Below are positions 24,872-49,064 of a stretch of 52,828 nucleotides of DNA, piece by piece. Source of the stretch: a virus (lineage: Duplodnaviria; Caudoviricetes); IMG/VR virus record IMGVR_UViG_3300046718_001019, positions 1-52,828 of that record. One strand, given 5' to 3'. The notes below the pieces were generated by a model. That model did no database searches. It saw only the letters and a program-made list of their open reading frames with translations, and was not told where the DNA came from. The position numbers and the translations under genes were made by a program. Each line of letters begins with the position of its first letter. The stretch's first letter is position 1.

Positions 24872-27187
24872 ATGGCCGCGCCGCCGAACACCGCCAAAGA
24901 CCGCGCGTCACCGCGCGAGAACGTCTGGGCCATCAAGACGAAGGACGAGTTCGGCATCGCCATCACCGCGAAGCTGCAGGAGTGGAATTCGCCGCAGACG
25001 GGCGCGATGGCGCTGCATCAGGCGAATGTCTCGCTCGCGTATGCGCACCTCTACGGAATGGACGTTGAGGGTGTCGGCGCGAACGCGGCCGGCATCACCC
25101 GCAGCGGTGAGCAGGGCAGCATCGCCGAGATGCGAATCCCCGCGGCGGCCGGCGACCTGCGGAAAATCTGGAACATCATCGTCGGTCCCGAGCTGACGTG
25201 GAGCGCCATCGCCACCACCACCGACTACGCCTCCTCCGCGCAGGCCATCGTCGCGAAGAACGCGCTGCAGTACTACCTCGTGCAGAAGCTCGTCCTCGCG
25301 AAGGCGAAGAAGCAGGAACTGCAGTCACTCGCCTACGCCGAGGCAGCCATGCACATCCCCTGGAATGAGAACGAGGGCGAAGACGTCGGCGTCGAAGAGG
25401 TGAAGAACATCGCGACCGGCGAGCCCGTTCTCGACGACGACGGGGTTACTCCACTGCAGCACGTCGTGAAAACCGGCGACATCGACTACCGGCCTGTCTC
25501 CACGTGGGACATCATCCGAGACCCGACCGCGAAGTCCTTCGACGCATCGCGGTGGATCATCGTTCGCGAGTGGCAGGACCGCTACGACGTCGCCGCGCGC
25601 TGCAAGATGCGCGGAGACCTGGAGGGCGCAGAGGCCGCGCTCGTCGCCCCGTCACAGACGAGCGAGACGTGGCGCTCGTGGCGCCCCTTCAATCAGACAC
25701 AGCAGATGAACTCGGACTTCATCCCCGTCTACTACGGGTACCACTACCGCACGCCGGGCGTGCCCAAGGGCCTCGAGGCAGAGTTCCTCGAGTCAGGGCA
25801 CGTGATGCAGTTCGCCCCGCTGCGCAAGGCGTACCAGAAGCAGATCCCCGTGGTCCGCACTGCGCCGGACGAGTACGACGACACGCCTGTCCCGTTCTCG
25901 AAGTTCTGCTCCGTCCTCGGCATGGGTCAGGCGGCTGACGCGCTGATGCGCGACCTGCTCACCAACGCTACCGCGACAGCGGCCGGGCTCGTCAGCGTCG
26001 AGGACGACGCGAACATGGCCATCCCTCAGCTGGGTGGCGGGCCCAAGGTACTCGTGCGCCCCAAGGGCACGAAGGCGCCGGAAGCCATCAACCTTCAACA
26101 GGCGCACTCTGAGCACTTCAAGCTCGTCGGCACGTTGAGCGAGATGCGTCGCGGCATCCTCGGCCTCGACAGTGTCACCGCGGGGCAGGAGGTCCCGGCC
26201 GGGTGGTCGGGCGCGCTCGCGGCGCTGGTGACCTCGACATCAGTGCAGAACAACTCCCAGGAGCAGTCGAAGTGGTCGCAGTTCGTCCAGGCCATCGGCA
26301 ACGTCACGCTCGCGCACATCCAGAACCACATGCCCACGAAGCGGAAAATCGCTCTCGCCGGCAAGTCGCGCGCGGACCTGGTCGTCACCACCGAAATCAG
26401 CGGTCCCCAGGTCGCCGACATCGAGCGCGTGGAGTGCACGCTGGCTCCGGCCATTCAACAGACCGACGCCGGCAAGATGCAGATGGGTGAGACGGCACTG
26501 CAGCAGAAGTGGGCGAAGACGCCGCAGCAGCTCCAGGCGGTGTTCGACACCGGCCGGCTCGACGCGCTCACCGACGACATGTCGTCGGAGCTGATGCTGG
26601 TTCGCAATGAAAATGAGGCGCTCGCCAAGGGCCAGCAGGTCGCTGTCATGGCCCACGACGACCACGTGCTGCACATCCGCGACCACCGCTCCGTCGGCGC
26701 GAGCATCACCGCTCGGCAGGACAAGGGCGTGATGGATGCGCTCGCCGCGCATATGCAGGCGCATGTCGACGCGCTGAAGAACACCGACCCTCACCTACTC
26801 GAGCTCCTCGGCCAGCCGTCGTTCGCGCCGCCGCCGAACGCCGGGCCTCCGCCGCCGACCGACGCCGTGAAGCTCGGCATGGTCGACAAGGCCATGAAGC
26901 TCGGCGGAGCCCCCACTGCTCAGGCGGCCCAGCAGGTCTTCGAGGCGGGGAAGATCGACGCCGCCACAGGCATCGTCCCGCCGCGTCTGGGAGGCTTCGG
27001 GCAGCCCTCCCCGAACGCCTCGAACACCGCTCCGGTACCAGGCCAGACTGCGCCACAGCAGCAGTCCCAGGCTCAAGGCCCCCAGATGCCGACTAACCCC
27101 GCCACGGGGCAGCCTGCGGCGCCGGTGGCCGGTTCAATGCCTCCGGGTATGGCCATCAGGCCAGGTCTCGCCGCGGGGCAGAAATAG
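24872..27187 (+). CDS. Portal protein (P22-like)
   Basis: 771 aa; GDIDYRPVSTWDIIRDP, SGALAAL, AHDDHVLHIRDH, Q/P-rich tail; GAGGAG RBS. Confidence 0.8.
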   Translation: MAAPPNTAKDRASPRENVWAIKTKDEFGIAITAKLQEWNSPQTGAMALHQANVSLAYAHLYGMDVEGVGANAAGITRSGEQGSIAEMRIPAAAGDLRKIWNIIVGPELTWSAIATTTDYASSAQAIVAKNALQYYLVQKLVLAKAKKQELQSLAYAEAAMHIPWNENEGEDVGVEEVKNIATGEPVLDDDGVTPLQHVVKTGDIDYRPVSTWDIIRDPTAKSFDASRWIIVREWQDRYDVAARCKMRGDLEGAEAALVAPSQTSETWRSWRPFNQTQQMNSDFIPVYYGYHYRTPGVPKGLEAEFLESGHVMQFAPLRKAYQKQIPVVRTAPDEYDDTPVPFSKFCSVLGMGQAADALMRDLLTNATATAAGLVSVEDDANMAIPQLGGGPKVLVRPKGTKAPEAINLQQAHSEHFKLVGTLSEMRRGILGLDSVTAGQEVPAGWSGALAALVTSTSVQNNSQEQSKWSQFVQAIGNVTLAHIQNHMPTKRKIALAGKSRADLVVTTEISGPQVADIERVECTLAPAIQQTDAGKMQMGETALQQKWAKTPQQLQAVFDTGRLDALTDDMSSELMLVRNENEALAKGQQVAVMAHDDHVLHIRDHRSVGASITARQDKGVMDALAAHMQAHVDALKNTDPHLLELLGQPSFAPPPNAGPPPPTDAVKLGMVDKAMKLGGAPTAQAAQQVFEAGKIDAATGIVPPRLGGFGQPSPNASNTAPVPGQTAPQQQSQAQGPQMPTNPATGQPAAPVAGSMPPGMAIRPGLAAGQK

Positions 27188-27221
27188 ACGGCGGGCCCAC
27201 TGCTGAGCTACGAAGGATCTC

Positions 27222-27281
27222 GGCGAGCCGCAGTCGGCCTGTTCTCTTGCAAAAAGCCGGGCCGACGACTCCTTGTTCGCC
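27222..27281 (+). ncRNA. Y RNA unit 1 (minimal, 60 nt)
   Basis: GGCGAGCCG...CTTGTTCGCC bulged-C closing helix; inner 9-bp stem GTCGGCCTG/CGGGCCGAC; apical CTTGCAA. Confidence 0.75.
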
Positions 27282-27308
27282 ATTCCTCAGCGCGCTACGG
27301 TGCTTCGC

Positions 27309-27431
27309 GGCGAGCCGATGTGACTCCCTTACCATCTCAAGGAAGCGAACGCGGGTTCGACTCCCGCTCGGCGCCCCCGGTGCCGATCGTCTAACGGTAG
27401 GACAGCTATGGGATCACGCCTCTTGTTCGCC
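27309..27431 (+). ncRNA. yrlA: Y RNA unit 2, YrlA-like with permuted tRNA domain
   Basis: Closing helix plus T arm GCGGG-TTCGACT-CCCGC, loop-closed acceptor-like stem TCGGCGC/GTGCCGA, then D arm GTCTAACGGTAGGAC. Confidence 0.88.
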
Positions 27432-27458
27432 AACACTTCTTCGCTGTACGGTCTCTTC

Positions 27459-27584
27459 GTCGAGCCGCAGCGTTCTCTTCTCTTGGTGTCGTTGGTTCAA
27501 ATCCAACCCGCAGCGGAAGTCTCCTGCGGTAGCTCAGTCTGGTAGAGCGAAAGACAAAACTGGGAGCGCGTCCCCTTGTTCGAC
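27459..27584 (+). ncRNA. yrlA: Y RNA unit 3, YrlA-like with permuted tRNA domain
   Basis: Compensatory closing helix GTCGAGCCG/CTTGTTCGAC; T arm GTTGG-TTCAAAT-CCAAC; CCGCAG/CTGCGG stem; D arm TAGCTCAGTCTGGTAGAGC. Confidence 0.9.
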
Positions 27585-27611
27585 AAGTTCCCGTCGCGGT
27601 ACGTTCTCCGC

Positions 27612-27702
27612 GGCGAGCCGAATCGGTTCCGTTCTCATGCCTCGGCGTGAAGGTGGTTTGGAGTTGTTCCACTGAAACGCGGAGCCGGGTCTCTTGTTCG
27701 CC
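27612..27702 (+). ncRNA. Y RNA unit 4 (two-hairpin domain, not tRNA-like)
   Basis: Closing helix, CGGTTCCG/CGGAGCCG stem, hairpins TCATGC-CTCG-GCGTGA and GGTGG-N12-CCACT. Confidence 0.78.
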
Positions 27703-27730
27703 ATGTCCTGCCTGACATAGGGTCCGCCTC

Positions 27731-27836
27731 GGCGAGCCGACGCAGGTCCGTTCTCTCTCGCAAAGAGCCCGAAGGCCGTTCGACTCGGCCGCTGCCCTGG
27801 TGGCAGGGTTACCCGGATCCGCAAACCTTGTTCGCC
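27731..27836 (+). ncRNA. Y RNA unit 5 (anticodon-like arm plus T arm, no D arm)
   Basis: Closing helix; CTCT-CTCGCAA-AGAG; T arm GGCCG-TTCGACT-CGGCC; CTGCC/GGCAG hairpin. Confidence 0.82.
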
Positions 27837-27863
27837 ATGCTCCGCCTCGTGTAAAAACGAGAG

Positions 27864-27932
27864 CGCCGAGCCGATCGGGGTTGGGTTCTCCTGTTAAGAG
27901 AAAACCCCCAGCCTCATCTTCTTCGTTCGGCG
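27864..27932 (+). ncRNA. Y RNA unit 6 (anticodon-like stem-loop only)
   Basis: Compensatory closing helix CGCCGAGCCGA/TCGTTCGGCG; GGGGTTGGG/CCCAGCCTC stem; TTCTC-CTGTTAA-GAGAA. Confidence 0.72.
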
Positions 27933-27966
27933 TCAGTTTTCCTCGCTGCGAGAGACGAGAGAACCC

Positions 27967-29643
27967 ATGAACTACGCGAAGCATGTTTCGACCGTTGCCA
28001 CGCCGCAGTCCGAGCCGATTCCCGGCACCACGCAAATTCCCAACAGCGCCGGCGGTCACGCCTGGGATGCCGACGTCTGGCAGAAGCTCGACCGTTTCCT
28101 GGTGCTCGGCACCGAAGGCGGCAGCTACTACGCCGGCGAGCGCGAGCTCACCCAGAAGAACGCGGGCAACCTCGAGACGGCGCTGAAGCTCGACGGTCTG
28201 CGCACGGTCGCGCGCATCGCGGAGATCTCCGACGCCGGCCGCGCTCCCAAGAACGACCCCGCCATCTTCGCCCTGGCGATGGCGCTCAAGAAGGGCGACG
28301 AGAAGACGCGCAAGGCTGCGCGCGCTGCAGTTCCCAAGGTCTGCCGCATCGGGACGCACATCTTCCAGCTCGCCGAGGCTGTGAAGCACCTGGGTGGGTG
28401 GGGCCGCAGCACCAAGGGCGCGTTCGCGGACTGGTACCTGAGTCAGCCCTTCGACGCGCTGTCGATGAACGTCGTCAAGTACCAGCAGCGCGGCGGATGG
28501 TCGCACCGCGACCTGCTCCGCAAGTCTCATGCGAAGCCGAAGACGCCTGAGCAGAACCGCCTCTTCCGTTACGCCGCTGGGAAGCCCAACGAGGAGCCTG
28601 TCGGCGGCATCGTCGGGGCATTCGAGGCGGCGAAGAACATCGGCGCGGGCGTGGCCACCATGCCCGGCGCTGCTCCGACGGCGCCGATGGTCGCGGCCAT
28701 GGCTCGGCTCATCTCGGCCGAGGGCCTGCCGCGCGAGTGCGTGCCGACCGAGTTTCTCAACGCGCCCGAGGTCTGGGATGCGCTGCTGCACGCGGGCAAG
28801 TACGGCATGCCGATGACGGCCATGGTCCGCAACCTCGGCAAGATGAGCGCCATCGGCCTGCTCAAGCCGCTGTCCGACGCGACGAAGTACGTCTGCGACA
28901 AGCTGCGCAACCGTGACGCGCTGAAGGCTGCGCGCGTGCACCCGGTGCAGCTGCTGCTCGCCCAGGCGACATACCTCCAGGGTCACGGTGACAAGGGCAA
29001 GCTGAGTTGGACCGTCTCGGAGGAGATCGGCGCCGCTCTGGCCGACGCCTTCTCCCTGGCGTTCGACTTCGTGGAGCCCACCGGCAAGCGTCACCTGTTG
29101 GGGCTCGACGTCTCGGCCTCGATGGACGGCTCGACCGTGGCTGGGACCCCGCTCACCTGCCGCGCTGCGTCTGCGGCAATGGCGATGGTGACAGCGCGGA
29201 CTGAACAGCGCTGCCACGCGGTCGGATTCACGTCTGCCGGCAGCAGGGTCTACGGCGGGATGTGGGGAGGCAACAGCACCGAGCTGACGCCCATCCCCCA
29301 GCTGAACGCCAAGGCGGAGTTGCTGTCGGTCATCAACCACGTGCGGAACATGCGCATGGGTGGGACGGACTGCGCGCTGCCGATGATCTACGCCGAGAAG
29401 AACAAGCTCGAGGTCGACGCGTTCGTCATCTACACGGACAACGAGACCTGGGCGGGTAGCATCCACCCGTCGCAGGCGCTCAAGTCCTACCGGCAGCGCA
29501 TGGGCATCGACGCGAAGCTCGTGGTCGTCGGCATGGTGGCAAACGACTTCACCATCGCGGACCCGAAGGACGCGGGCATGCTCGACGTCGTCGGTTTCGA
29601 CACGGCCGTCCCGACGGTGATGTCGAACTTCATCCGGGGCTGA
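27967..29643 (+). CDS. rsr: Ro60 / TROVE-domain RNA-binding protein
   Basis: NSAGG, LDRFLVLGTEGGSYY, GRAPKNDPAIFALA, GGWGRS, KYQQRGGWSHRDLLR, RNLGKM; vWA MIDAS DVSASM, GGTDC, YTDNETW, DVVGFD. Confidence 0.97.
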   Translation: MNYAKHVSTVATPQSEPIPGTTQIPNSAGGHAWDADVWQKLDRFLVLGTEGGSYYAGERELTQKNAGNLETALKLDGLRTVARIAEISDAGRAPKNDPAIFALAMALKKGDEKTRKAARAAVPKVCRIGTHIFQLAEAVKHLGGWGRSTKGAFADWYLSQPFDALSMNVVKYQQRGGWSHRDLLRKSHAKPKTPEQNRLFRYAAGKPNEEPVGGIVGAFEAAKNIGAGVATMPGAAPTAPMVAAMARLISAEGLPRECVPTEFLNAPEVWDALLHAGKYGMPMTAMVRNLGKMSAIGLLKPLSDATKYVCDKLRNRDALKAARVHPVQLLLAQATYLQGHGDKGKLSWTVSEEIGAALADAFSLAFDFVEPTGKRHLLGLDVSASMDGSTVAGTPLTCRAASAAMAMVTARTEQRCHAVGFTSAGSRVYGGMWGGNSTELTPIPQLNAKAELLSVINHVRNMRMGGTDCALPMIYAEKNKLEVDAFVIYTDNETWAGSIHPSQALKSYRQRMGIDAKLVVVGMVANDFTIADPKDAGMLDVVGFDTAVPTVMSNFIRG

Positions 29644-32387: not shown

Positions 32388-32753
32388 ATGGCGAAGAACA
32401 AGACCAGCTTCGGGAGAGGCAAATCCGGCAATCCCGGTGGCCGACCGAGAAAGCGCAAGGAACTGGTCCAGCGCTGCCGCGACATCGTCGACGAGGACGG
32501 CGTCGACGCGCTGCACGACGAGGTGCGGGAGCGCGGCGAACGATGGGTCGAGTGCATGAAGCTGCTCCTCGCCTACGGCTACGGTCGACCCACCGAGCAC
32601 ATCGAGGCGACCGTGACGCATGAGGAAGCCGCGCCGAAACTGACGCTCGACGAGCTGCGCGAGGTGGCGCGCATGGGCATCCAGCAGCGCCTCGCGGCCG
32701 AGCACCAGGCCGACGATGACGACGACGACGAGCCCAGCTCCGCCCCGCATTGA
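32388..32753 (+). CDS. terS: Terminase small subunit (DUF5681-type N-terminus)
   Basis: FGRGKSGNPGGRPRK, LLAYGYGRP; directly upstream of TerL. Confidence 0.75.
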   Translation: MAKNKTSFGRGKSGNPGGRPRKRKELVQRCRDIVDEDGVDALHDEVRERGERWVECMKLLLAYGYGRPTEHIEATVTHEEAAPKLTLDELREVARMGIQQRLAAEHQADDDDDDEPSSAPH

Positions 32754-34308
32754 TGACGCGTCACTGAAGCGCGCCACCGATGCGCTCTGGCGAGCAGGCG
32801 ACCTCACCTACAAGCTCGACGAGGGGCGCCCCTCCGGCCCACAGCGGCGCTTCTACAACAAGAGTCGGAAGTGCAACTCCAAGACGTTCGTCACCGAGGA
32901 CGCGCGCCGCCTCGGCAAGACGTACGGACACGCCATCATCGGCTTCGAGCTCGCGCTCAAGAATCCCGGCCGCCGCATCAACTGGTGCCAGGACACCGCG
33001 AAGGGCGTGCGCGACATGGCGGTGCCCCTGTTCGAGAAAATAGCCAAGGACGCGCCGCCCGACTGCAAGCCGGAGTGGAAGGACAACCGCAGCGTCATGG
33101 CGTTCCCCAACGGCGCCTACATCTTCGTCTTCGGCGGCGATACCCAGGCGGACGCCGACAACGCGCGCGGTGGTGATGACCCCATCGCCAGCTTCGTCGA
33201 CGAGGGCGGCTTCATCGCGCTGCTCAAGTACATCTACCGCAGCATCTTGAAGCCGGCGCACCGACGCGTGAAGCGCAGGGGCCACTTCGGGATGATTTTC
33301 ATCGTCTCGTCCACGCCGGAGGACCTCGATCACTACTTCATCGAGTTGGCCGGCATCAACGAGGTGAAGGGCAGCTACATCCGCGAGGACATCTACGCGT
33401 CGGCGGACCCAGAGGCCTATATCGCGGAGGAAGCGCAGGACCTGGCACTCACCGTCGAGCAGTTCATGCGGACGGACGAGTTCAAGCGCGAGTTTCTCTG
33501 TCTCCGCGTCATCCGCAGCGACGTCGTCGTCTTCCCCGAGTTCACCGAGGCGAAGGACCGCAGCGAGCGCTCACTGGTTCAGGACTGGCCGCGGCCGCTG
33601 GGCTTTGAGCAGTACATCTACAAGCGAACAGGAGTGGACCCCGGCGGCATGAGAGACCCGACGGGCATCCTCTCTGGCTACGTCGACTTCACCAACGCGC
33701 GCATCGTCATCGAGGGCGAACGGCTCATGCCGCGGCCGAACACGAAAGACATCGCCGACGCCATCGTCGAGCTCGAGACGGAGCTCTGGGGGCCGCCGCC
33801 AGAGCCAACGCAGCCCGGGGAGACGCCACCGGACAGAGACCGCGTCTCGCGCCGGGTCGACGACGCCACCGGCCGCGTCACCCTGGACCTCTGGGAGATT
33901 CACAAACTCCGCTGCGAGCCGGCGGTGAAGAACGACCGCAACGCCAGCATCGGCCTCATCCGCACCTACCTGCTCAACGGAACGCTCGTCGTCCACCCGC
34001 GGTGCGTTCAACTCCTGCATCAACTGCAGTATGCGAAGAACAACGCCACGCGCACCGACTTCCTCCGCAACGACAAGGGGCACTGCGACCTCGCCGCGGC
34101 GCTGATGTACTTCGTGCGCGACTTGAACCTCATCACCAATCCCTATCCGGCGGACTTCGACCAGCTCACCGGCCGCGCGATGCCCGACAATCACGTCATC
34201 ATGATTCGCCGGGAGGAGATGGGCGTCGGTCGCGATAAACAGGGTCTCGCCGCCGCGCTGCTCAGTGGGAACAGGTTCGTCCAGGGGCAGTTGAAGCGCC
34301 ACCGCTGA
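32716..34308 (+). CDS. terL: Terminase large subunit
   Basis: Walker A RRLGKT, Walker B FVDEGGF, coupling motif SSTP, nuclease GVDPGGMRD, HCDLAAALMY. Confidence 0.92.
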   Translation: MTTTTSPAPPRIDDASLKRATDALWRAGDLTYKLDEGRPSGPQRRFYNKSRKCNSKTFVTEDARRLGKTYGHAIIGFELALKNPGRRINWCQDTAKGVRDMAVPLFEKIAKDAPPDCKPEWKDNRSVMAFPNGAYIFVFGGDTQADADNARGGDDPIASFVDEGGFIALLKYIYRSILKPAHRRVKRRGHFGMIFIVSSTPEDLDHYFIELAGINEVKGSYIREDIYASADPEAYIAEEAQDLALTVEQFMRTDEFKREFLCLRVIRSDVVVFPEFTEAKDRSERSLVQDWPRPLGFEQYIYKRTGVDPGGMRDPTGILSGYVDFTNARIVIEGERLMPRPNTKDIADAIVELETELWGPPPEPTQPGETPPDRDRVSRRVDDATGRVTLDLWEIHKLRCEPAVKNDRNASIGLIRTYLLNGTLVVHPRCVQLLHQLQYAKNNATRTDFLRNDKGHCDLAAALMYFVRDLNLITNPYPADFDQLTGRAMPDNHVIMIRREEMGVGRDKQGLAAALLSGNRFVQGQLKRHR

Positions 34309-34320
34309 CGCTGGTACGGT
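34291..34320 (+). promoter_or_regulatory. Putative promoter of the lysis cassette
   Basis: TTGAAG-N18-TACGGT; same -10 as two Y-RNA promoters. Confidence 0.5.
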
Positions 34321-34410
34321 GAAGGCACCGACGTTGCGAGACGGGCACCTACCTCGAAAGAGCCGGTGCGCTACCGAGCGCGAACGGACACCCGCCGTGA
34401 CGGAGCTTTC

Positions 34411-34650
34411 GTGTCTGACGCCGCGCCTCTCGAGTTGCTGCCCTTCAATGATCCGCCCTCCATCGAGACATCGGTCCAGGAGCACCTGAACGTGGTGCAC
34501 GAGATGCGTGAGATGCGCGAATCGCAGCGCATCTTGAACGAGAACCACCAGCGGCTCGCGGACGCCATCACCGTCGACCGGCTGTCGCTGGGCCGCATCG
34601 AGAAGCTGCTCTCCCGCGTCGCCCAACACCTGGGGGTCCGACATGGCTGA
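34411..34650 (+). CDS. Small coiled-coil protein
   Basis: GGAG RBS, GTG start. Confidence 0.55.
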   Translation: MSDAAPLELLPFNDPPSIETSVQEHLNVVHEMREMRESQRILNENHQRLADAITVDRLSLGRIEKLLSRVAQHLGVRHG

Positions 34651-36348: not shown

Positions 36349-36701
36349 TGCTCACGCTCGTCATGATCGTCGCCCTCTCGCAGTCGCCCGATGCACCGCT
36401 GCGGCACCAGTGCGGCACGGTGGAGCACAAGCCTGACGGCGGCGTGGATGCGACCGTGGCAGGCTGCGCGAACATCCTCAACGTCGGCACGCCCACCCCG
36501 TACGCTGGACTGCTGCTGGATGAGCAGGAAGACGTGCACCGCACCTCACGCGAAGAGGGAAAGACGGTCGAGCTGAAGGAGCTCAAGACCGGCAACTTCA
36601 TCATGCCGCCCGGCGCCTACGTGGGCATCACGGGCGCTGCCGTCGGGGTGGCGATCGCGCTCACGCTGGCGCTGCTTGCCGGAACCGGGCACCTGAAGTA
36701 G
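36348..36701 (+). CDS. Exported protein with C-terminal TM, spanin-like topology
   Basis: Hydrophobic N-terminus and C-terminal AAVGVAIALTLALLA; last gene of the lysis cassette. Confidence 0.5.
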   Translation: MLTLVMIVALSQSPDAPLRHQCGTVEHKPDGGVDATVAGCANILNVGTPTPYAGLLLDEQEDVHRTSREEGKTVELKELKTGNFIMPPGAYVGITGAAVGVAIALTLALLAGTGHLK

Positions 36702-36709
36702 ATTCGCAT

Positions 36710-36781
36710 CGTGCCGTGGAGCAGCGGTAGCTCGCTGGGCTCATAACCCAGAGGTCGCCGGTTCGAATCCGGCCGGCGCAA
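36710..36781 (+). tRNA. tRNA-fMet (CAT), initiator type, CCA not encoded
   Basis: CGTGCCG/CGGCGCA acceptor with C1:A72 mismatch, CTGGG-CTCATAA-CCCAG with three G-C pairs, GCCGG-TTCGAAT-CCGGC. Confidence 0.95.
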
Positions 36782-36793
36782 AGGAGGCAGCAC

Positions 36794-39561: not shown

Positions 39562-39619
39562 CGTGCGTTCTCCCTACGTGAGCCCAGCGCCGACAATCGG
39601 CACCGGGAACAACGAGGAA

Positions 39620-39707
39620 GGTGGGTGACGGGGCTTGAACCCGTATGCTCCCGCTAGAGAGCCACCGCTTCTAAGGCGGCTGCGTCTACCAATTCCGCCA
39701 CACCCAC
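39620..39707 (-). tRNA. tRNA-Leu (TAG), atypical C73 discriminator, CCA not encoded
   Basis: GTGGGTG/CACCCAC acceptor, GCGGAATTGGTAGACGC D arm, GCCGC-CTTAGAA-GCGGT, long variable arm, ACGGG-TTCAAGC-CCCGT. Confidence 0.9.
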
Positions 39708-39736
39708 CGTTTCCTCAGAGAGTCGTTTGCGCGACC

Positions 39737-39780
39737 CTCTATATATATAGTGTACCCAGATATATTATTTGGGCATTTCG
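39737..39780 (-). promoter_or_regulatory. AT-rich leftward promoter with operator-like inverted repeat
   Basis: Minus-strand TACACT -10 at 39749-39754; inverted repeat CCCAGATATATTATTTGGG at 39755-39773; CTATATATATAG palindrome. Confidence 0.55.
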
Positions 39781-40033
39781 GCGGGCATTTCCAGGGAAAT
39801 ATTTAGTGGGGACAGTTATTTACGCGTAAGCCGGCTTGGCAGAAAAATCGACCGTTGAAATCACTGGGGGTTTTATTTCTGTGTCCCCACAAATGTTTTC
39901 GGGTAGCGGGGCCCAGAAAGCCCAACCCCCGCACCGGGCACGATGTCCGGGCGGGGGTCAGGGGTGTGGCGGTCGGCCTTTCGGCCGGCCCTCTAGCGGG
40001 AGATCTGTATGGTGCTCTTGGGACGGACTGCCG

Positions 40034-48307: not shown

Positions 48308-48537
48308 GGTCGCACCTCGATTCCGGACGTCCGGACAGCGATTCCGGACGTCCGGAAAGGCCTGGTCAGGTGGCTGAAGCGGTGCTTCATCTCCGCATTG
48401 AGCGCGCGCAGTGCCGCGAGCCACTTGTCGCCGCGGACGTGAAGCAGCGGGTCATTCCACTCGGTGGCGCGCCACGTCTCGTAGGCGGCGAACTCGTGGG
48501 AGCGGAGGAACTCGACGACGTCGAAGTCGGGGCTCAT
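48304..48537 (-). CDS. Hypothetical protein
   Basis: Coupled ORF. Confidence 0.55.
   Translation of the reverse strand: MSPDFDVVEFLRSHEFAAYETWRATEWNDPLLHVRGDKWLAALRALNAEMKHRFSHLTRPFRTSGIAVRTSGIEVRP
48318..48357. repeat. Tandem pair of TCCGGACGTCCGGA palindromes, 21-bp period
   Basis: 48322-48335 and 48343-48356. Confidence 0.8.
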
Positions 48538-48953
48538 CAGCGCGACTCCGGGTGTGGCGAGGCCGTCCGGAAGCCGAGGCACAGCCGGCAGCGTTCGCCG
48601 TGGCTGCCCGCCTCGAAGTCGTGCGCGCGGTGCTGCATCGCCCGGCGCGCGTGGACGAGTCCTTCGACGTCGAGGGCGCAGTAGGTGTCCCAGGCGCGGG
48701 CGAGGCGAGCCTCGGCGGCGGCCCAGATTCCGCCGCGGTTCTTCGCCGCGAGCTGGTCGATGACGCCGTCGACCGCGAGCTGGAAGGAGCTGGCGAGCGT
48801 GCCGCCCGTGCTCTCCATGGCGGCCTCGAGCTGCTCGTCCGTCATCCATAGCGCGACGGCGCCAATGACGATGTGCGCCGCCTCCACGCGCTGCTCGAGG
48901 TGGAAGTCCTGCCCTTCGTCCGTTTCATCGTGCTGCTGTTCGCTGAAGCCCAT
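48537..48953 (-). CDS. Hypothetical protein, first gene of the leftward operon
   Basis: GGGAG RBS downstream of the strong leftward promoter. Confidence 0.6.
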   Translation of the reverse strand: MGFSEQQHDETDEGQDFHLEQRVEAAHIVIGAVALWMTDEQLEAAMESTGGTLASSFQLAVDGVIDQLAAKNRGGIWAAAEARLARAWDTYCALDVEGLVHARRAMQHRAHDFEAGSHGERCRLCLGFRTASPHPESR

Positions 48954-48981
48954 TCGTTCGTCTCCCGTGTTGGTCAACGAG

Positions 48982-49064
48982 AGTATCGACATGGTGATTC
49001 AACATGTCAATCACTTTTTGATTCACAATCTGATTTGACTTTTGATTCCCGCATGGGCGAGACT
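48982..49064. promoter_or_regulatory. Divergent promoter/operator region
   Basis: Minus strand TTGACA-N17-GATACT (49010 to 48982); plus strand TTGACT-N18-GAGACT; GACATG-N9-CATGTC palindrome; many TGATT/AATCA half-sites. Confidence 0.75.

Follow-up and report, generated by a model that had tools for sequence, protein, structure and literature searches.

To our knowledge, whether the Y RNAs of bacteria and their phages arise as primary transcripts or as pieces processed from longer RNAs has been largely unexamined. The closest described systems are the YrlA and YrlB RNAs (Chen et al. 2014, PMC4201824), which, in the parts of that paper available to us, are small structured RNAs encoded on the same strand as, and directly 5' of, a Ro60 orthologue, with tRNA-like T and D arms in at least one RNA and a closing helix with a bulged C and a 5' motif beginning GNCG; the locus reported here resembles them in position, in the tRNA-like arms and, as far as the GNCG of its 5' motif goes, in the closing helix. 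According to the same parts of the paper, bacterial Y RNAs known so far share an operon with rsr and Mycobacterium smegmatis YrlA is cut by RNase P in vitro, and these parts contain no promoter analysis of bacterial or mycobacteriophage Y RNAs (PMC4201824). In Listeria phage CKA15, three very highly transcribed non-coding regions were found on the same strand less than 2 kb 5' of an Rsr-like gene, each with a sigma-A-like promoter motif, and the authors suggested that they are possible Y RNAs (PMC12282133). This case differs from ours in that, as far as the available text of that paper goes, the Y-RNA identity is only suggested and no overlap of a promoter with a preceding RNA is described; moreover, the host is of low GC and the Rsr is distant. 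Animal Y RNAs provide an analogy only, each RNA being the primary transcript of its own gene as stated in the accessible part of PMC4030889, although those genes use RNA polymerase III, promoter elements of their own and oligo-U terminators.

The window, by which we mean the whole 52.8-kb stretch of DNA analysed, is the record of a soil phage and carries six Y-RNA-like units at 27222-27931, directly 5' of a Ro60/Rsr gene. The units lie 36-745 nt upstream of rsr and all on the + strand, that is, within the ~4 kb and on the strand used to place RNAs in this family (PMC4201824). The features of the locus are as follows.

24872-27187, + strand: upstream open reading frame, 771 aa, no Pfam or PHROG match.
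27222-27281, + strand: Y-RNA-like unit 1, 60 nt, a simple stem-loop.
27309-27431, + strand: Y-RNA-like unit 2, 123 nt, parts of which resemble a T arm and a D arm; 22.4 bits for a partial match to YrlA.
27459-27584, + strand: Y-RNA-like unit 3, 126 nt; full-length match to the YrlA model, 38.2 bits (E 1.4e-6), below the 69-bit gathering score.
27612-27702, + strand: Y-RNA-like unit 4, 91 nt.
27731-27836, + strand: Y-RNA-like unit 5, 106 nt, including a hairpin similar to a T arm.
27865-27931, + strand: Y-RNA-like unit 6, 67 nt, with the 3' strand TCGTTC instead of TTGTTC.
27967-29643, + strand: rsr, the phage Ro60 orthologue, with TROVE and Ro60 vWA domains.

The Rsr protein matched both the TROVE (E 1.9e-35) and the Ro60 vWA (E 9.4e-65) domains, and its nearest relatives are actinophage Ro proteins (~45%). 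Those of the integrase are from Myxococcus phages Mx9 and Mx4 (32%), and the sole match of the terminase is from a Silvanigrella phage (25%). The array sequence was identical across contigs from four soil and rhizosphere DNA runs, where the first differences from the window appeared at 27937 and in one small contig only.

A closing helix of the form GNCGAG.../...TTCGNC folds in each of the six units, and its second pair changes in a compensatory manner, being U-A in unit 3, C-G in unit 6 and G-C in the remaining four. Its 5' strand, GNCGAGCCG, has six of its 20 copies in the window within the array, and CTTGTTCGMC occurs exactly five times in the array and three times elsewhere in the window. 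For the 5' motif GNCGAAN0-1G, GNCG was present in 6/6 units and the next A in 4/6, the full motif being unmatched. In the covariance-model search with the YrlA-like family of Rfam (RF02553), no unit reached the gathering score of 69 bits and units 1, 4, 5 and 6 gave no hit; for units 2 and 3, the alignment included the positions of both the T arm and the D arm. Judged by its folding and position, the array is a set of six Y-RNA-like genes of a phage Ro60 (Rsr) locus, for which Ro60 binding is predicted.

Unlike YrlA/YrlB, the window has six units separated by gaps of fixed length, each gap with a -10-like hexamer. The six units and gap lengths of 27, 27, 27, 28 and 28 nt given in a preliminary description of this DNA were reproduced from the sequence by script; if the helix of unit 6 is extended by the 2 bp that are available (27863-27933), then the last gap becomes 26 nt. 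Such gaps beside units of 60-126 nt suggest that the gap length is under constraint. The promoter-like sites are listed below, each named after the unit that follows it.

27185-27214, + strand: weak promoter-like pair of unit 1, TAGACG (27185-27190)-N18-TACGAA (27209-27214), 7 nt 5' of the unit, the final T of the -10 missing.
27273-27301, + strand: promoter-like site of unit 2, TTGTTC (in the helix of unit 1)-N17-TACGGT, 7 nt 5' of the unit.
27423-27452, + strand: promoter-like site of unit 3, TTGTTC-N18-TACGGT, 6 nt 5' of the unit.
27576-27605, + strand: promoter-like site of unit 4, TTGTTC-N18-TACGTT, 6 nt 5' of the unit.
27694-27723, + strand: promoter-like site of unit 5, TTGTTC-N18-TAGGGT, 7 nt 5' of the unit.
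27828-27857, + strand: degenerate site of unit 6, TTGTTC-N18-TAAAAA, the final T missing.

As had been proposed, all five internal gaps have a TA at one register; in four of the five the hexamer is TAnnnT, located 17-18 nt 3' of TTGTTC and 6-7 nt 5' of the next unit, the first helix base of which is a G. The pair before unit 1 was likewise found as described, and so was the end of the array, where the last unit ends in TCGTTC and is followed by no TAnnnT before the rsr start codon. The TAG stop codon of the upstream reading frame forms the first three bases of TAGACG, and there is no terminator-like site between unit 6 and the rsr start codon. No terminators were found within the array. Before unit 6 there is a small CTCG/CGAG hairpin, the loop of which contains the TAAAAA. 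Compared with the classical consensus, which may not be the preference of the host, TTGTTC and TACGGT each match at 3/6 positions, and an E. coli-type promoter scan, subject to the same reservation about the consensus, gave no sites in the array at a threshold of at least 4/6 per hexamer.

The register of the hexamers is not a matter of chance. Of 200,000 shuffles of each gap, none placed four or more of the five hexamers in the register seen in the array, and four did so when any register shared by the gaps was allowed. The genome is TA-depleted and has few TANNNT sites (39 and 35 on the + and − strands, respectively, of the 52.8-kb window), and the combination TTGNNN-N17/18-TANNNT occurred six times on the + strand and not once on the − strand (expected ~0.5 and ~0.8 respectively), four of the six being gaps of the array. 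Outside the hexamer, pairwise identity between the gaps was 34% compared with 29% expected from composition, in keeping with the earlier remark that the gaps are otherwise unrelated. As a separate observation, TACGGT is the commonest TANNNT elsewhere in the window too.

We compared the array with those of 99 other Rsr loci; two IMG/VR searches for Rsr, with 468 loci matching, contributed their 80 best loci each. Units were called with a heuristic regular-expression finder that both misses and over-calls units; earlier finders were dropped, one because it gave an excess of chance helices and another because its RNAduplex-based boundaries were unreliable. Gap lengths were scripted for the window, L125, L158, L161 and L005 and read by eye from the sequence for all of the others. 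In most phage arrays a single promoter lies upstream and the units are 7-24 nt apart. Among them, the metagenome locus L125 (Rsr 57% identical) has six tandem units before rsr with the same type of helix, GAGCTGA with CTTGTTC, and phages Catera, Cashline and Sparky have several tandem Y units before rsr. In contrast with the window, the 7-24-nt gaps of these operon-type arrays are usually without TAnnnT, and a recognizable promoter is present only before the first unit. An IMG/VR scan for CTTGTTCG-gap-CGAGCCG returned at least 119 stretches, with a single match in each of the 80 loci listed except L006, where the two matches fall in a protein-coding repeat.

At first units elsewhere, the distance from hexamer to helix is as in the window, often with a TTGACA 16-17 bp further upstream, as in L141 (TTGACA-N17-TAAAGT-N7), L173, L227 and L155. 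In high-GC loci, the hexamer was found at 15/34 first units compared with 2/34 for the control, and at 14/54 internal units compared with 2/54 for the reverse-complement control motif (p = 0.002). The internal hexamer was no commoner than the control in a first sample (2/31 compared with 2/31), and it was absent in 15 of the 23 high-GC arrays listed. The gene-by-gene layout, as judged from these loci, is lineage-specific. A candidate promoter TAGCAT 7 nt before a tRNA in L141 was ruled out, as ARAGORN placed the start of the tRNA-His 1 nt after TAGCAT.

The geometry of the internal hexamers recurred in several independent high-GC phage arrays (L217, L221, L222, L223, L224, L229 and L250). More widely, the arrays of L217/L221, L222, L223/L224, L229, L250, L201/L202, L196 and L199 share with the window a TAnnnT or TATAAT a few nucleotides before internal units, and gaps often too short for a -35 box, with the candidate promoter overlapping the preceding RNA gene. 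Thus in L217/L221, L223/L224, L222 and L250, which have the hexamer before most units and gaps from 14 to ~190 nt, where a gap is only 14-20 nt long, the -35 region has to extend into the gene before it. In L217, unit 1 of the Y array has its -35 region within a tRNA-Ser gene, in the T-loop. Between related arrays the T, the A and the final T of the hexamer are conserved and the inner bases differ (TAGCTT compared with TAGACT, and TATCAT compared with TATAGT). In L201/L202 (41% GC), a 3' helix strand starting with TTGCTC is followed by N18, TATAGT, N6 and the next unit. These arrays, which are unannotated metagenomic records, differ from the window in that the helix TTG is at 18 bp only in L201/L202 and in that none has five equal gaps.

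The reading that we prefer, to which we give about an even chance, is that of a gene-by-gene array in which units 2-5 would each have a housekeeping-sigma-type promoter nested over the preceding RNA gene. Each of these units would have its -10 element (TAnnnT) in the 27-28-nt gap before it, with initiation 6-7 nt past the hexamer at a G, the base with which pairing in the Ro-binding helix begins. Since the gap is too short for a whole promoter, the -35 region would reach into the 3' helix strand of the RNA gene before it, where TTGTTC may supply the TTG of a -35 box at the canonical 17-18 bp. With their degenerate hexamers, units 1 and 6 would probably be more dependent on upstream read-through. 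In the absence of terminators between the units, every start would read through the later units into rsr, and so the 3' ends would have to come from cleavage and trimming to the protein-bound helix. The preliminary description had assigned every RNA its own 5' end; the first units of related loci and the internal units of independent high-GC arrays lend this comparative support, and the sigma-A-like motif before each of the three Listeria phage regions speaks for it as well. The poor hexamers of units 1 and 6, the weak match to the classical consensus and the high-GC arrays that have no internal hexamer count against it.

A first alternative is that each unit has a promoter consisting of the -10 element only, that TTGTTC is not read by sigma and that the 17-18 bp are a by-product of a gap length fixed in another way, by the RNA polymerase footprint or by 3' processing. 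In actinobacteria TAnnnT alone can suffice as a promoter, and -10-only promoters occur in many high-GC bacteria. The alternative gains from L217, L221, L222, L223, L224 and L250, which with gaps of 14 to ~190 nt have no TTG at 17-18 bp, and from the helices of promoter-free arrays, in which the TTG occurs nonetheless: the helix TTG is also present in L125, L154 and L210, which have 7-17-nt gaps and no hexamer. It fits less well with the narrow range of the five gaps (27-28 nt) next to that of the units (60-126 nt), with a spacing that is exactly canonical and with the repetition of the TTG-N18-TAnnnT layout in L201/L202. Clear TTGAC -35 boxes at several first-unit promoters of related loci also speak against it, as the hosts of those loci appear to read a -35 box. 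We consider it unlikely that the -10 element acts alone.

The same evidence bears on the earlier proposal that the 3' strand of each helix doubles as the -35 box of the next unit. This dual use is plausible in view of the fixed gap length, the 17-18 bp and L201/L202, but the TTG is a general structural feature of the Ro-binding helix and TTGTTC would thus be there anyway; except in L201/L202, a TTG at the right distance is lacking in the other gene-by-gene arrays. The case for a -35 role of TTGTTC is weaker than that for one promoter per unit. In its full form, the proposal is that of a dual-coded Ro-binding helix, the 3' strand of which would be both half of the stem and the -35 box of the next gene. 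The helix plus the 27-nt gap would then be a self-sufficient cassette: each duplication would add another Y RNA that is expressed and begins, with a 5' triphosphate, exactly at the helix base. The window would belong to a wider class of phages that assemble small-RNA arrays gene by gene, each promoter overlapping the RNA gene before it, and that do not depend on host 5' processing. We regard this full form as tentative and, on balance, doubtful.

A second alternative is that the array is one transcription unit, starting from the upstream gene or the weak site of unit 1 and cut by host RNases, with the hexamers serving as RNA-level or other signals. One promoter and 7-24-nt gaps are indeed seen in L125, L002/L158, L154, L161, L173, L210, L220, Cashline, Catera and Sparky, and in the window, where the array is without terminators, one transcript from upstream might in principle be enough for all six. 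The operons of known bacterial Y RNAs and the RNase P cleavage of M. smegmatis YrlA point the same way (PMC4201824). However, a processed operon of this kind would be expected to have promoter-free gaps such as those of L125, L154, L161, L173, L210 and L220, and the window has a positioned TAnnnT in four of its five gaps. As operon-type arrays do without the hexamer, it is not needed for processing; furthermore, it is located 6-7 nt upstream of the mature end rather than at the end, the same hexamer and distance are found at first units, where a promoter is expected, and the excess over the reverse-complement control points to a signal in the DNA that is specific to one strand. A single processed transcript thus seems improbable to us. 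That the hexamers are relics of duplicated cassettes, or sites for another DNA-binding protein, with no role in initiation is very improbable, since, although the similar inner bases (TACGGT twice, TACGTT and TAGGGT) could mean common descent and TACGGT prevails among the TANNNT of the rest of the window as well, the remainder of the gaps has drifted to background identity (34% against 29%), the units are very different in length and sequence, a register to both flanks would not persist, and independent arrays show the pattern with other hexamers.

Returning to the preferred reading of nested promoters, the preliminary description knew of no account of such an arrangement, and we also found none in the literature, the Listeria phage paper coming close (PMC12282133). 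The compact layout with the promoter in the preceding RNA gene thus seems to be undescribed, its parts themselves being known. If the gaps are promoters, then each Y RNA would begin with a triphosphate right where the Ro-binding helix starts, with no need for processing by the host, and the dose of Y RNA and Rsr would be set by a ladder of tandem promoters. For practical use, the geometry may offer a rule by which small-RNA ends could be located in phages of high GC, along with several candidate promoters of very small size. If dual use of the helix is true as well, then the array would be a clean natural case of one stretch of DNA acting as both an RNA structural element and a promoter element, and the evolution of an RNA-protein contact would be tied to that of transcription.

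The stretch from the upstream ORF's stop codon (27187) to rsr, the gene for the Ro60 orthologue, contains six units, all of which begin with GNCGAGCCG. Units 1–5 end with (C)TTGTTCGNC and unit 6, as the preliminary description had it, with the different 3' strand TTCGTTCGGC. The 5' and 3' ends of each unit were predicted to pair around a bulged C, and the second pair of this helix is compensatory, being G–C in four units, U–A in unit 3 and C–G in unit 6. In an Rfam model search of the window no unit reached the gathering score of the YrlA model (69), the sub-threshold matches of unit 3 (38.2 bits) and unit 2 (22.4 bits) running through T- and D-arm-like parts. On the helix, these partial matches and their position and strand relative to rsr, the last being the criterion for Y RNAs stated in the text of Chen et al. 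2014 (PMC4201824), the units are best called Y-RNA-like.

Y-RNA-like units and rsr
27222-27281, + strand, unit 1, Y-RNA-like, closing helix
27309-27431, + strand, unit 2, Y-RNA-like, closing helix
27459-27584, + strand, unit 3, Y-RNA-like, closing helix
27612-27702, + strand, unit 4, Y-RNA-like, closing helix
27731-27836, + strand, unit 5, Y-RNA-like, closing helix
27865-27931, + strand, unit 6, Y-RNA-like, closing helix
27967-29643, + strand, rsr (Ro60/Rsr orthologue), TROVE and Ro60 vWA domains

The window, a whole IMG/VR virus record (52,828 bases, estimated 53% complete, about 67% G+C), also encodes a large terminase subunit, two ParB-like proteins, a Sak4-like annealing protein, an exonuclease, an integrase and two tRNAs, and among named proteins its Rsr is closest to Ro-like proteins from phages of Gordonia, Mycobacterium and Streptomyces (35–45% identity). 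The six-unit array was identical in four soil/rhizosphere DNA runs, and this invariance yields no population signal; just before and at the rsr start (27937-27984), a small contig from one of the four runs had eight differing positions and two insertions. A terminator scan gave no terminator-like site between the units or before rsr, its single match lying at the 5' end of unit 1.

The unit coordinates bear out inter-unit gaps of 27, 27, 27, 28 and 28 nt. The TA-initiated hexamer proposed to lie 17–18 nt after TTGTTC of the 3' helix strand and 6–7 nt before the next RNA was found as TANNNT in four gaps and as TAAAAA in the fifth, and the site claimed before unit 1 is likewise present.

Promoter-like sites of the array
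before unit 1, + strand, TAGACG-N18-TACGAA-N7, poor hexamer
gap 1, + strand, TTGTTC-N17-TACGGT, hexamer ending 7 nt before unit 2
gap 2, + strand, TTGTTC-N18-TACGGT, hexamer ending 6 nt before unit 3
gap 3, + strand, TTGTTC-N18-TACGTT, hexamer ending 6 nt before unit 4
gap 4, + strand, TTGTTC-N18-TAGGGT, hexamer ending 7 nt before unit 5
gap 5, + strand, TAAAAA at the corresponding place before unit 6, poor hexamer

Once the hexamer is set aside, the gaps resemble one another no more than their composition would predict (34% identity compared with 29%), in agreement with the preliminary description. TTGNNN-N17/18-TANNNT occurs six times on the + strand of the window and never on the − strand (~0.5 and ~0.8 expected respectively), and four of these six full sites are array gaps. 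When each gap was shuffled 200,000 times, the observed arrangement never appeared and a shared register of any kind appeared four times. The gap arrangement is thus beyond chance and strongly non-random. The sites match the classical consensus weakly, and a promoter scan with a consensus of the E. coli type returned no site.

TA is strongly depleted across the window (~1% of positions), and TANNNT was counted 39 times on the + and 35 times on the − strand, where base composition would give about 220 on each. Only two other full sites were present, near 36676-36782 and 34291-34411. The first, TTGCCG...TAGATT, ends at 36704, 4–5 nt before tRNA-Met (36709/36710-36782), and its TAG also ends the upstream ORF; the site may be fortuitous, or a promoter whose start falls at the beginning of the tRNA or slightly within it. 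The second, TTGAAG-N17-TACGGT, follows the stop of a terminase-like ORF (32716-34308) and precedes about 90 nt with no obvious start codon; it might represent a promoter, a 5' leader or a small RNA. On the − strand, a very AT-rich island (39709-39820) containing TATATATATAG and several TAnnnT words that overlap is found directly upstream of tRNA-Leu (39619-39708), near a switch of gene orientation and AT skew. Also on the − strand, TTGACA-N19-TACTCT (48960-48990) is close to where the ORF at 48537-48998 begins and is a candidate promoter for the genes of the leftward block.

Comparison of Rsr loci from IMG/VR, metagenomes and named phages revealed two array layouts. In the commoner, operon-type layout, one recognizable promoter precedes the first unit and the gaps are short: 11, 7 and 16 nt in L002/L158, which have a TTGACT-N17-TATAAT promoter, 10 nt in L161, 20 and 23 nt in Catera, and, judged by eye, ~8–17 nt in L154, L173, L210, L220, Cashline and Sparky. 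L125, with the closest Rsr among the matches listed (57%), has six units with the CTTGTTC helix strand of the window, and T-rich gaps of 9, 9, 8, 9 and 7 nt. Each of its units (1540-2093) is followed by such a gap, closing helix and U run together recalling a terminator or the oligo-U tail that animal Y RNAs carry.

In the gene-by-gene layout, four Y units of L217 (67% GC) are each preceded by TAnnnT at a distance of exactly 7 nt from the helix, and a fifth is separated from a more distant upstream hexamer by a small hairpin; the −35 region of the first Y unit of L217 falls within the T-loop of a tRNA-Ser gene. In its relative L221 (73% GC; Rsr 71% identical) the hexamer positions are kept and the inner bases and flanks differ. 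A hexamer also precedes some or most units of L222, L223/L224, L229, L231 and L250, where gaps of only 14–20 nt (a few bases, the hexamer and 4–7 more) place the −35 region inside the preceding RNA gene. Among low-GC loci, L196 has TATAAT inside a 12-nt gap, L199 has TGcTATAAT inside a 17-nt gap, and L201/L202 have a 3' strand TTGCTC..., N18, TATAGT, N6 and then the next unit, the only case besides the window among the collected arrays of a helix TTG at the canonical distance. A small hairpin (GTCTCTCGGCAGAGAC or similar) recurs between TAnnnT and one Y unit in L217 (2227-2270), L221 (819-860) and L222 (2279-2320); as it is conserved across these related high-GC arrays, the RNA in question may be extended at its 5' end. 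In L135, a contig labelled as a Candidatus Bathyarchaeota MAG, which may be viral or bacterial and misbinned, the 1 kb upstream of the Rsr homologue (48% identical) contains five Y-like 5' modules.

We counted TANNNT ending 8–20 nt before the unit core in 99 non-redundant loci out of 153, with the reverse-complement word as a control; the unit finder, a heuristic 5' module (GYCG and, after it, a GGTTAYC-like word), both misses and over-calls units, and found two of six in L125.

TANNNT before Y units
high GC (≥58%), first units: 15/34, control 2/34, Fisher p 0.0005
high GC (≥58%), internal units: 14/54, control 2/54, Fisher p 0.002
low GC, first units: 15/58, control 15/58
low GC, internal units: 15/78, control 13/78, Fisher p 0.84

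The low-GC loci were uninformative. The internal hexamers were concentrated in eight of the 23 high-GC arrays listed, with none in the other 15, and in an earlier, smaller sample, taken from the loci closest to the Rsr of the window, hexamer and control were equally frequent (2/31, control 2/31). Thus the gene-by-gene hexamer layout is lineage-specific.

In form and distance to the helix, the hexamers of the window and of internal units in gene-by-gene arrays are the same as those of first units, where a promoter must exist and where a canonical TTGACA often lies 16–17 bp upstream. A processing signal is ruled against, since short-gap arrays do without the hexamer. From this geometry we reasoned that units 2–5 are each likely to have their own promoter, with a start at the first helix base. 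The proposal of one promoter per RNA gains partial support; units 1 and 6 have poor hexamers.

The further proposal, that the 3' helix strand doubles as the −35 box, is weaker, as TTGTTC is present for structural reasons anyway. TTG is a property of the Ro-binding helix and not promoter-created, given that operon-type arrays share the strand (CTTGTTC in L125) and that L210 has a perfect −35-like word, CACTTGACC, with no hexamer downstream; other gene-by-gene arrays also manage without a TTG at that distance. On the other side, the spacing, a gap length that stays constant while the units vary widely, and the L201/L202 arrays make dual use of TTGTTC as a −35 plausible. Transcripts would read through into rsr, and the Y RNAs would be trimmed at their 3' ends.

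A full-text literature search turned up no account of promoters that lie between Y RNA genes or are nested within them, consistent with the earlier statement that the arrangement is undescribed. Chen et al. 2014 listed 254 bacterial species and 22 phages with Y RNAs close to rsr, and in the text their promoters were not analysed (PMC4201824). Thermus phage phiLo has two Y-like RNAs upstream of Ro60, and the word 'promoter' is absent from the main text of that report (PMC12135203). In the text on Listeria phage CKA15, an Rsr-like gene is preceded by three non-coding regions with very high transcription, every one of them with a sigma-A-like promoter motif, and Y RNAs are proposed as one possibility (PMC12282133); as described there, these regions are the nearest precedent for the array of the window, which is made from known parts.
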